Shown piece by piece: positions 11,257 through 13,110 of a stretch of DNA of 23,057 nucleotides (position 1 is the first letter of the stretch; every line of letters begins with the position of its first letter). A program made the translations under genes and the position numbers. Source of the stretch: Chthonomonadales bacterium (lineage in GTDB: Bacteria; Armatimonadota; Chthonomonadetes; Chthonomonadales; Chthonomonadaceae); the NCBI GenBank assembly GCA_038217285.1, contig JBBQPO010000067.1:1-23057 (forward strand), written 5' to 3'. The notes under the pieces were generated by a model that worked only from the letters and a program-made list of their open reading frames with translations, was not told where the DNA came from and did not search any database.

Positions 11257-11832
11257 ATGACGGCTACAACAACCCATCCTATAGTGAAGACGGACATCAA
11301 GCATTCTAGTGACAACGACAGTATCAAGAGCTACCCTGCGCCGCACCAACTGGCGACCCCCACCGATCTGGAAGGCATCAAAGACATTGTGAAGGCCTTG
11401 AACCCACTCGTTGCGGACGCTTTTGCTTTGTACGTCAAGACCAAAAATTTCCACTGGCATCTGGCGAGCAGCCATTTCCGCGACTACCATCTGCTGTTCG
11501 ACGAGCATGCCGATCAGATTTTCGCGACCATTGATCCCATCGCCGAGCGCGTCCGCAAGATCGGTGGCACGACCATTCGCAGCATCGGCCACATCGCCCA
11601 ACTGCAAAGCGTAAAGGACGACAACCAGGACTTTGTCGCACCGCTCGACATGATGCGCGAACTGATGCAGGACAATCAGAACATGGCGGCCAACATGCGT
11701 AAAGCGCATGAGGTCTGCGATAAGCATAAGGATGTGGCGACGGCCAGCCTGCTGGAAGTGTTCATTGACGAAACCGAACGGCGCGTCTGGTTCCTCAATG
11801 CGACCGCGCAGGGGGACACCAACACACGATAG
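11257..11832 (+). CDS. dps: DNA starvation/stationary-phase protection protein (Dps, ferritin-like)
   Basis: LYVKTKNFHWH, HLLFDE, D.IAERVR, DVATASLLEVFIDETERRVWFL. AAGGAG RBS. Confidence 0.95.
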   Translation: MTATTTHPIVKTDIKHSSDNDSIKSYPAPHQLATPTDLEGIKDIVKALNPLVADAFALYVKTKNFHWHLASSHFRDYHLLFDEHADQIFATIDPIAERVRKIGGTTIRSIGHIAQLQSVKDDNQDFVAPLDMMRELMQDNQNMAANMRKAHEVCDKHKDVATASLLEVFIDETERRVWFLNATAQGDTNTR

Positions 11833-11907
11833 GCAATAAACCCGTGTTCACCGACGATAAGATCCATTTCGTGATCGAGGGACACCAACACACGATAGGC
11901 AATAAAC
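11813..11907 (+). repeat. Two identical 29-bp direct repeats separated by a unique 37-bp segment
   Basis: GGGACACCAACACACGATAGGCAATAAAC at 11813-11841 and 11879-11907. Copy 1 contains the last dps codons and the stop. Confidence 0.95.
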
Positions 11908-11926
11908 GACTGGCAGCAATATCCAA

Positions 11927-11972
11927 GCAGCGCGAGCAGGCATTCGATTGCCTGCTCGCGCTGCCTTTCTTT
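11927..11972 (+). terminator. Rho-independent terminator of dps
   Basis: Perfect 16-bp stem GCAGCGCGAGCAGGCA-ttcgat-TGCCTGCTCGCGCTGC followed by CTTTCTTT. Confidence 0.85.
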
Positions 11973-12137
11973 GAGAAGGCGTGTTTTCTGTGCGTGTAAG
12001 CGTCGCGCTGCGTGAGCGACCAGAGGCTTACCGCTGTATTCTCCCCTACCTTCCGGTAGAGCGCGCCTGAATCGCCATACGTTGTTCTCTCCGCTGATCA
12101 GAGCGGTGACCTGGGCGAACACCGCTATATTGAAGGG

Positions 12138-12724
12138 ATGCAGGGGAGGGAAACCGATGCCAGGGAGTGTGTGGTGCGCCTGCTCAACCTCGCTGAAGGA
12201 TGGCTCGAACAAATCTCCACGCTCAAAGAGCAGAACCAACTCCTCCGAGACGAGATCGCACGCCTGAGGGGACAGCAGGGCAAGCCCAATGTCAAGCCCA
12301 ACAAGCCCCAAGTCGATCATTCCAGCGAAGCCCACTGAAGAGAACCCAAGGTCTGGAAGAAACAGCCCAAGCGCGATCTTATCGAGGTTCACCACACCTG
12401 TGAACTCCTCCCCGATCTCTCGACGCTCCCTGCAGATATCCAGATCAAAGGCTATGAAGACTTCGTGGTGCAGGATCTCAAACTCGTCTGCGAGAATGTC
12501 CGCTTTCGCCGCGCCAAGTTCTACTCCCCTTCCACCAAGAAGACCTATCTCGTTCCACCAAGAAGACCTATCTCGCTCCCTTGCCCAAGGGCTACGAAAG
12601 CCATTTCGGGCCGGGGATCAAGTCACTCGCCCTCTTTTTGGGATATGCCGGCAACATGAGCCAGGCGGGCATCCACCACCTGTTCACAAGCGCCGGAGTG
12701 ATCCTATCCACCGGCGTTCCCTAA
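12138..12724 (+). pseudogene. Degenerate IS66-like transposase (N-terminal fragment)
   Basis: Joined reading: ...LKEQNQLLRDEIARLRGQQGKPNVKPNK...SSEAH*REPKVWKK...LPADIQIKGYEDFVVQDL...RFRRAKFYSPSTKKTYL/APLPKGYESHFGPGIKSLAL...GVP*. In-frame TGA at 12336-12338, frameshift from a 23-bp duplication, truncated before any DDE domain. Family assignment by resemblance. Confidence 0.7.
12530..12575 (+). repeat. Perfect 23-bp tandem duplication
   Basis: TTCCACCAAGAAGACCTATCTCG x2 (12530-12552, 12553-12575). Confidence 0.95.
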
Positions 12725-12744
12725 CGGGCCCAGATTGAAGGGCG

Positions 12745-13110
12745 CTATAGGGGTTCAATGGTAACCGTTCTGCCATCGGCGAACGGAATGTTGACCTCAT
12801 ACCCCTCCAGTAATGACGTGCCGAGGAGAGGACGTTTGCCAGTAGCAAGAACTGCGACCGTACGTACTTCGCCATTCCACAATATCCTAGCGCGATGGAC
12901 GTCAACCCGGATACTGGAGTCGTCCGCCAGATTCGCAATCAACTCCTGATCAAAGGGAAGACCGAGAGCGGCAACGGCTTCTGGTGGCATTGTCAATGCC
13001 CCCTCAAATCCCGTATCGATCACGAATTCCATCTCGATGCTGGGCTGGCCTGCCAAGAGAAAAGCAACGCCGATGCGTGCCTGTTGACCTGCTACATAGC
13101 CAATGGTCAT
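12745..13110 (-). CDS. Clan AA (retropepsin-like) single-lobe aspartic protease
   Basis: FVIDTGFEG catalytic motif, LADDS flap-like segment, PLLGTSLL motif. 121 aa. Confidence 0.85.
   Translation of the reverse strand: MTIGYVAGQQARIGVAFLLAGQPSIEMEFVIDTGFEGALTMPPEAVAALGLPFDQELIANLADDSSIRVDVHRARILWNGEVRTVAVLATGKRPLLGTSLLEGYEVNIPFADGRTVTIEPL

Follow-up and report, generated by a model that had tools for sequence, protein, structure and literature searches.

Spacer-sized inserts between duplicated targets suggest natural off-target CRISPR integration in a Chthonomonadales bacterium

The immune-memory machinery of a Chthonomonadales bacterium seems at times to write into the wrong place, a view that we take because of the shape of an insertion at the end of a Dps-like gene and because of three more scars in the same genome. 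The window that we analysed, 23,057 nucleotides long, is the entire contig C67 of genome G000 (6.21 Mb in 459 contigs, 95% complete) and contains a 37-nt insert between two identical 29-nt sequences. On balance, we favour the reading that this dps scar arose by off-target integration of a spacer by Cas1–Cas2, probably by the module associated with the type III system of the host. The genome-wide set of scars is a more valuable result than the dps scar alone.

Results

An insertion with target duplication at the end of a Dps-like gene

The ORF at 11257–11832 (plus strand, 191 aa) encodes a protein with a Pfam Ferritin-like domain (E 2.3e-29); we call the gene Dps-like solely from this Pfam match, ‘Dps’ being the label used in a preliminary description of the window. 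Its last six codons and TAG stop lie within the first copy of a 29-nt repeat (11813–11841), which starts with G, ends with AAAC and is either the original or the duplicated target. The repeat is followed on the same strand by a spacer-like insert of 37 nt (11842–11878; GC content 48.6% versus 60.4% for the genome) and by a second copy of the 29-mer that is 100% identical to the first (11879–11907). An intrinsic-terminator-like hairpin with the T-rich tail of the dps transcript begins 19 nt after copy 2 (11927–11974, plus strand) and is kept in G001, a genome of the same genus. The hairpin itself, at 11927–11964, has 16 pairs, 12 of them G–C, and forms a palindrome with 19-nt arms. Copy 1 retains the gene end with its stop codon, and the terminator has likewise stayed whole. 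Our recount of the window sequence, together with the coordinates of the ORF and the hairpin, agrees with the preliminary description, which had reported a 29-37-29 arrangement with 100% identical repeats, the gene end and stop in copy 1 and a terminator after copy 2.

The 29-nt pair is not extendable, as the bases flanking each copy differ on both sides. Across the 6.21-Mb genome, the 29-mer occurs at these two sites only and the 37-mer occurs once (both allowing ≤3 mismatches), and a blastn-short search of G000 returned no other match longer than 20 nt to either sequence. Identical 29-mers 66 nt apart in 6.2 Mb cannot be chance.

The neighborhood within the window is of a housekeeping kind, with pgi and genes for a chorismate-binding enzyme, dehydrogenases and a GGDEF protein. 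Among the 14 large ORFs of the window, none matched an integrase or transposase family, and the 23-kb sequence contains no cas gene, no tRNA or tmRNA and no Rfam match.

Downstream of the dps terminator, similarity to G001 fades past ~12040, and the stretch from there to the next genes (12040–12750) is specific to G000. The short ORFs in this stretch have no Pfam family, and two near-identical 23-nt direct repeats lie at 12525–12570. Two candidate features of this region were discarded: an IS66-like transposase fragment at 12138–12738 was withdrawn for want of Pfam support, and a 21-nt inverted match (76%) between the insert and 12375–12395 was judged to be chance.

Empty sites in relatives and support from a separate assembly

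A homologue of the dps region was present in 8 of 60 other genomes searched in the order, the closest being that of G001 at 92% identity. In G001, a single 29-mer (2 mismatches) leads directly into the terminator region, and the alignment leaves G000 with 66 extra bases; this is the simple gene–terminator junction that, according to the preliminary description, removal of 66 bp should restore. We also compared Logan contigs of four metagenome runs (X1–X4, from four studies) over 11400–12200. Two contigs from X3 and one from X4, which belong to other studies, join 11812 to 11879, skipping exactly 66 bases, and represent the empty site in related but diverged populations, adding to the comparison with close relatives that had been proposed as a check. 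Contigs from X2 end at 11841 and resume at 11907, and neither show nor exclude the insert. Because G001 is without the insert and the X3 and X4 contigs skip the 66 bases, the dps scar is, judging from these alignments, a recent insertion with target duplication that postdates the split from all relatives seen.

Run X1, the best-holding of the four and possibly the source sample, has a depth of ~7 and provides a separate assembly in its Logan contigs. A 1305-nt contig from this run is identical to 11400–11892, a span that takes in copy 1, all of the insert and the first 14 nt of copy 2. Because this separate assembly reproduces these elements, the 29-37-29 structure is not an artefact of one assembler. 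The X1 contigs do not cover 11893–12003, which is evidence neither way, and the link from copy 2 to the terminator has the genome assembly as its sole support. This unconfirmed link, the division of G000 into 459 contigs and the low depth of the best-holding run are what could be cited for an artefact of a low-coverage metagenome bin. Such an artefact is nevertheless very unlikely, as the X1 contig gives the structure unchanged, misassembly would not invent a unique 37-mer, and the sister scars described below are backed by an empty site or by a homologue.

The same comparisons bear on the alternative that the two 29-mers are the attL and attR of an integrated element whose interior has been almost wholly deleted. 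An integrase with the 3′ end of a gene as its target brings its own copy of that end, so that direct repeats of this size remain, and the dps scar resembles such att duplications in that its direct repeats preserve the gene end. Unlike att sites, however, the scar encloses only 37 nt, and the window holds no integrase, transposase, tRNA or element. Moreover, precise excision is far more probable than a deletion that stops ≤37 nt from both att cores, and the relatives and the other metagenomes show empty sites only, never the full integrase element between the repeats that the preliminary description had named as contrary evidence. We regard a relic of this type as exceedingly unlikely. Casposons, which combine Cas1-family integration with a target duplication of about half of 29 nt, flank a multi-kb element, in contrast to the 37-nt insert at dps with a duplication about twice as long.

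CRISPR systems of the host

The preliminary description had made spacer integration depend on the presence of cas1 and cas2 in the host, and G000 has two Cas1–Cas2 sets and two arrays. The type I-E locus on C74 is complete (cas3, cse1, cse2, cas7, cas5, cas6e, cas1e and cas2e). Its array has 51 full repeats of 29 nt with a period of 61, and the 50 spacers measure 32 nt (43), 33 nt (6) or 34 nt (1), with none of the 50 longer than 34 nt.

A type III locus on C56 has matches to Cas10 palm2, a Card1-like nuclease, a CARF protein and three RAMP proteins. Next comes a protein of 957 aa in which FHA, reverse transcriptase (RT) and archaeo-eukaryotic primase domains are fused, and then Cas1 and Cas2. 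The fusion matches the NCBIfam family ‘CRISPR-associated primase-polymerase type A1’ above cut-off. A type III array opens contig C73, with 19 repeats of 37 nt that end in GAAAC; its 18 spacers are 32–45 nt long, with a mode of 37 (5/18). The type III leader is unassembled, as C56 stops just past cas2 and C73 begins within a repeat, and a search for the type III repeat in 41 other genomes of the family, made to recover the leader, found none.

The gene for the FHA–RT–primase/polymerase fusion occupies C56:20897-23770 (L024:7898-10771), directly upstream of the Cas1–Cas2 genes, and a gene for a Ser/Thr kinase just precedes it. We know of no description of an FHA–kinase pairing beside an adaptation module.

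Fit of the dps scar to the two systems

The dps scar has the topology of a neo-CRISPR locus, with a unique spacer-sized insert between exact copies of a local target, and its lengths are hybrid. The preliminary description had proposed that 29 and 37 be compared with the repeat and spacer lengths of the host, and each number does find a counterpart: the duplication equals the I-E repeat in length, and the insert equals the mode of the type III spacers. However, no single system fits both, as I-E spacers are 32–34 nt versus 37 nt for the insert and the type III repeat is 37 nt versus 29 nt for the duplication.

Likeness to the native repeats is not significant. The 29-mer matches the I-E repeat at best at 12 of 28 positions (background P ~0.09 per register) and the right-anchored type III repeat at 12 of 29 (P 0.09). 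It does share G...AAAC ends with the type III repeat, whose terminal GAAAC bears out an earlier remark that the 29-mer ends in AAAC as CRISPR repeats often do; 0.17% of random genomic 29-mers have such ends, a feature chosen post hoc. The GC content of the insert lies within 1 s.d. of that of native spacers (type III, 54.2 ± 8.5%).

Both native repeats contain a GC-rich inverted repeat that the 29-mer does not have. For this reason, the scar is best seen as inert; from its sequence it is probably not a working array, and crRNA would not be expected. The locus has one insert, stands in the 3′ UTR of a housekeeping-type gene and has no cas gene in its window, unlike a functional CRISPR array, and the term ‘neo-array’ used in the preliminary description was an overstatement.

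Source of the 37-mer

Within G000 the 37-mer has no source, the longest exact match being 15 nt. No exact copy was present in the viral, metagenome and genome contigs scanned, and a search of 67 other genomes of the order allowing ≤3 mismatches was also negative. In the coding frame suggested previously, G or C occupies 9 of 11 third positions; a codon-degenerate pattern built on that frame matched nothing in these three kinds of contig. Searches with blastn against phages and plasmids returned chance-level matches only (best E 0.5). The protospacer and PAM that the preliminary description suggested seeking were therefore not found in the viral, phage, plasmid, metagenome and genome sets searched. 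Most spacers are without a known source, and because this outcome is common for spacers, a missing protospacer weighs little.

Sister scars in the genome

We scanned G000 for every exact direct repeat of at least 20 nt with an insert of at least 20 nt outside both arrays, which gave 45 rows, and ran it a second time with 2 mismatches in 26 permitted. Tandem arrays, protein repeats and contig-end elements account for most rows. Five, by our own selection from the scan, are isolated repeat-insert-repeat units with an unrelated insert: the dps scar on C67 (29 + 37); an apparently intergenic unit at C41:5676-5767 (L022:1977-2068), which is 31 + 30 and readable as 28 + 33; a 28 + 33 + 28 unit at C137:8394-8482 (L020:1995-2083) that splits a gene of the endonuclease/exonuclease/phosphatase family; a 29 + 32 + 29 unit at C194:9421-9510 (L021:2022-2111), close to the 3′ end of a long ORF on the minus strand that matches no Pfam family; and a 24 + 27 + 24 unit at C9:9128-9202 (L037:1529-1603) that fits neither CRISPR system. 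The C41, C137 and C194 units each have a period of exactly 61, which is that of the I-E array; the chance that at least three of five units fall on one pre-named period among 51 is 7e-5.

Read as 28 + 33, the C41, C137 and C194 units match the I-E repeat in their best registers at 16/28, 14/28 and 14/28, respectively, for which the background is P(≥16) = 0.0012 and P(≥14) = 0.014 (Fisher, register-corrected, p 1.9e-4). In these registers the target starts with C, like the native I-E repeat, and the insert starts with G, the base by which the native I-E repeat reads as 29 nt. None of the three unique inserts was found in viral contigs.

Each of the three has its own supporting evidence. The C41 scar has a clean empty site in G003 (91% identity), and its target contains a 12-nt GC palindrome. 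At C137, a 319-aa homologue (P0003) aligns continuously over both gene halves. The nine residues that the 28-nt duplication encodes align to it twice, and removal of 61 nt in silico extends the open frame from 275 to 355 codons. The gene at C137 thus has the appearance of one inactivated by a misplaced I-E spacer. The evidence at C194 is weaker: the frame is shifted near the 3′ end of the ORF, and removal of 61 nt extends it from 864 to 897 codons. In four congeners, searches found no DNA homologous to C137 and none covering the C194 scar, the only C194 match being 60 nt at the start of the query, away from the scar. Because these three period-61 scars combine I-E metrics with I-E-like targets, off-target spacer integration by the I-E integrase, at repeat-like sites, appears to occur in this lineage. 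It appears to have cost this genome a gene twice, at C137 and, on the weaker evidence, at C194.

The I-E enzyme could also be asked to account for the dps scar, by attacking off-target with its normal 28/29-bp stagger and carrying an abnormally long prespacer of 37–38 nt. Its repeat length equals the 29-bp duplication, the three period-61 scars point to its off-target activity in G000 and, in Pyrococcus furiosus, off-target spacing follows the length of the native repeat (PMC6698737). We nonetheless consider an overlong I-E prespacer improbable. Not one of the 50 native I-E spacers exceeds 34 nt, and the I-E-like scars all have a period of 61, admit a G-start insert and a C-start target and show 14–16 of 28 matches to the repeat, whereas the dps scar has a period of 66 and at most 12 of 28 matches and, when read as 28 + 38, offers no G-start insert and no C-start target in any register or orientation.

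For the type III system, an approximate-repeat scan found no canonical off-target scar (37 + 32–45) in G000. Two candidates with ~37-nt repeats, at C182:10033 and C291:4435, proved to be in-frame protein repeats. A 24 + 36 unit at C119:12824 was also set aside, as it lies inside a block of tandem and genus-wide interspersed repeats.

The C9 unit shares its layout with the dps scar. The last codons of a gene and its TAG stop are duplicated, with a terminator hairpin right after copy 2; G003 is too diverged at this position for a clean empty site. The C9 scar hints at a route without Cas proteins, in which a break or a stalled fork by the terminator palindrome would lead to the capture of filler DNA and the re-copying of 29 nt, by template switching or end joining. 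Such a duplication-insertion event would also agree with lengths of 29 and 37 that fit no single CRISPR system, and with a dps target that ends 19 nt before a palindrome with 19-nt arms. On the other hand, templated repair would be expected to draw on sequence nearby or elsewhere in the genome, and G000 holds no such source for either the 37-mer or the 27-mer; three scars in the same genome obey the rules of an integrase; and no repair pathway of bacteria is known to us that leaves clean 24–29-bp duplications on either side of unrelated DNA of 27–37 nt. Taken together, we judge a repair-based origin of the dps scar to be a serious rival, though clearly less likely than integration.

Discussion

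We propose that one off-target spacer integration by Cas1–Cas2 could have produced the 66 bases at dps. The two 3′ ends of a prespacer of ~37 nt would each attack a different strand of the chromosome, at points that are separated by 29 bp and lie just within the dps end, and gap repair would then copy the 29-bp target on either side of the insert. Because the duplicated target holds the last codons and the stop, dps would be left intact, and the scar would be harmless in the 3′ untranslated region ahead of the terminator. Staggered attack by 3′ ends followed by gap repair is the only route known to us by which an unrelated insert of ~35 nt comes to lie between clean copies of a ~30-bp target, and the host has two enzymes that act in this way. 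That an integrase made the dps scar, and which integrase it was, we infer from this shape, from the host enzymes and from the sister scars.

Of the two host integrases, we consider that of the type III-associated module on C56 more likely to be responsible, for several reasons. First, the length of the insert is the modal spacer length of its array. Second, the I-E enzyme keeps canonical lengths here even when it acts off-target. Third, spacer length is fixed on the integrase ahead of integration. Finally, the choice of the second site depends on motifs inside the repeat, and a stagger of 29 bp rather than 37 bp could reflect second-site attack in DNA without the internal ruler motif of the repeat.

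Studies of other integrases describe related behavior. In Haloarcula, moved repeat motifs change the size of the duplication to 29, 31, 32 or 33 instead of 30 (PMC4872114), and in the type II-A system of Streptococcus thermophilus, which has a 36-bp repeat, altered motifs give aberrant attacks 8 nt away (PMC6895254). A type III-A Cas1–Cas2 alone integrates promiscuously in vitro (PMC13769266). In P. furiosus, off-target full-site integration in vitro keeps the native 30-bp spacing, and the sites share conserved bases of the repeat (Grainy et al. 2019, PMC6698737). Those sites lie in non-CRISPR DNA and have G/C at their borders, as does the dps target, with G first and C last; unlike them, the dps target has a spacing that falls 8 bp short of the type III repeat, and its similarity to that repeat is not significant.

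Several observations count against the reading of the dps scar as a type III off-target product. The lengths 29 and 37 match no one system of the host, the P. furiosus off-target sites and the three I-E-like scars keep canonical lengths, the scans of G000 gave no canonical type III scar, and the C9 scar has a dps-like layout and fits neither system. In addition, the literature searched, as far as its text was accessible, held no precedent for an integrase with a 37-bp repeat making a 29-bp stagger. The proposal in the preliminary description of a natural off-target spacer integration thus stands in part: the empty site, the host enzymes and the sister scars speak for it, and the lengths, the poor likeness to the native repeats and the missing protospacer and PAM do not.

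Compared with canonical acquisition in the two host arrays (I-E on C74 and type III on C73), the dps scar shares the signs of staggered attack, duplication of a repeat-length target and a spacer-length insert. It differs in its position away from any leader or array, in a target unlike the native repeats and in lengths drawn from different systems. The closest known comparison is with laboratory loci. Nivala, Shipman and Church reportedly described, in Nat Microbiol in 2018, non-canonical spacer integration and neo-CRISPR loci in Escherichia coli with overproduced I-E Cas1–Cas2. Like the E. coli neo-CRISPR loci, the dps scar has a spacer-sized insert between copies of a non-CRISPR target of roughly repeat length in a host with Cas1–Cas2, and the three period-61 scars match those loci closely. 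In contrast to the laboratory loci, the G000 events are natural, and the dps lengths fit no single host system. We therefore file the dps scar as a natural case of known off-target integration, with a reservation on the lengths.

Passages citing Nivala 2018 state that overproduced E. coli Cas1–Cas2 integrates outside arrays, and an excerpt of a preprint indicates that the evidence for natural off-target cases in two other species is circumstantial (bioRxiv 10.1101/148544). Off-target spacer integration is established in the laboratory with overproduced E. coli Cas1–Cas2, with natural examples scarce and circumstantial. The accessible text of the literature searched included no paper that takes natural genomic scars as its subject and compares them with empty sites.

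If off-target integration is the correct reading, there are several implications. First, the genomic cost of CRISPR adaptation in the wild would become measurable, by scanning genomes for repeat-insert-repeat units at the period of their own arrays. Second, the scars would be natural substrates that reveal how an integrase recognizes DNA without a leader and a repeat. Finally, they would give a concrete view of the birth of new arrays. Among the scars, that at dps is the odd one out: its hybrid lengths either expose the off-target behavior of an RT/primase-associated type III integrase, a poorly studied enzyme, or point to another insertion route that operates by terminators.

More broadly, and tentatively, a single account could link these observations, although we consider it more doubtful than probable in its entirety: the type III module with the FHA–RT–primase/polymerase fusion would have used a shortened stagger of 29 bp to place a spacer of 37 nt, possibly derived from RNA, into the 3′ UTR of a stress gene, and the I-E integrase would have left three more scars, two of them inside genes. 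If the type III reading is true, G000 would hold a natural record of CRISPR adaptation as a recurrent insertional mutagen and as a seed of new repeat–spacer units, with two integrases that follow different off-target rules side by side in one genome.

Other repeated sequences

The genome-wide scan also brought up two repeat families of other kinds. One element end, marked by direct repeats of 21 nt at a distance of 46 nt, recurs ≤121 nt from the ends of contigs C26, C37, C80, C97, C203, C204, C243, C260 and C344, and is probably that of a multi-copy insertion sequence that breaks the assembly. The second family comprises palindromic interspersed or tandem repeats of ~40 nt (core ...GCGAGGGGT.A.ACCCCTTG...) on C33, C41:12091, C50, C138, C220, C340 and C367. 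Because this family is abundant in G001 and G003 as well, it is, from its sequence and distribution, best described as a REP-like element of the genus.
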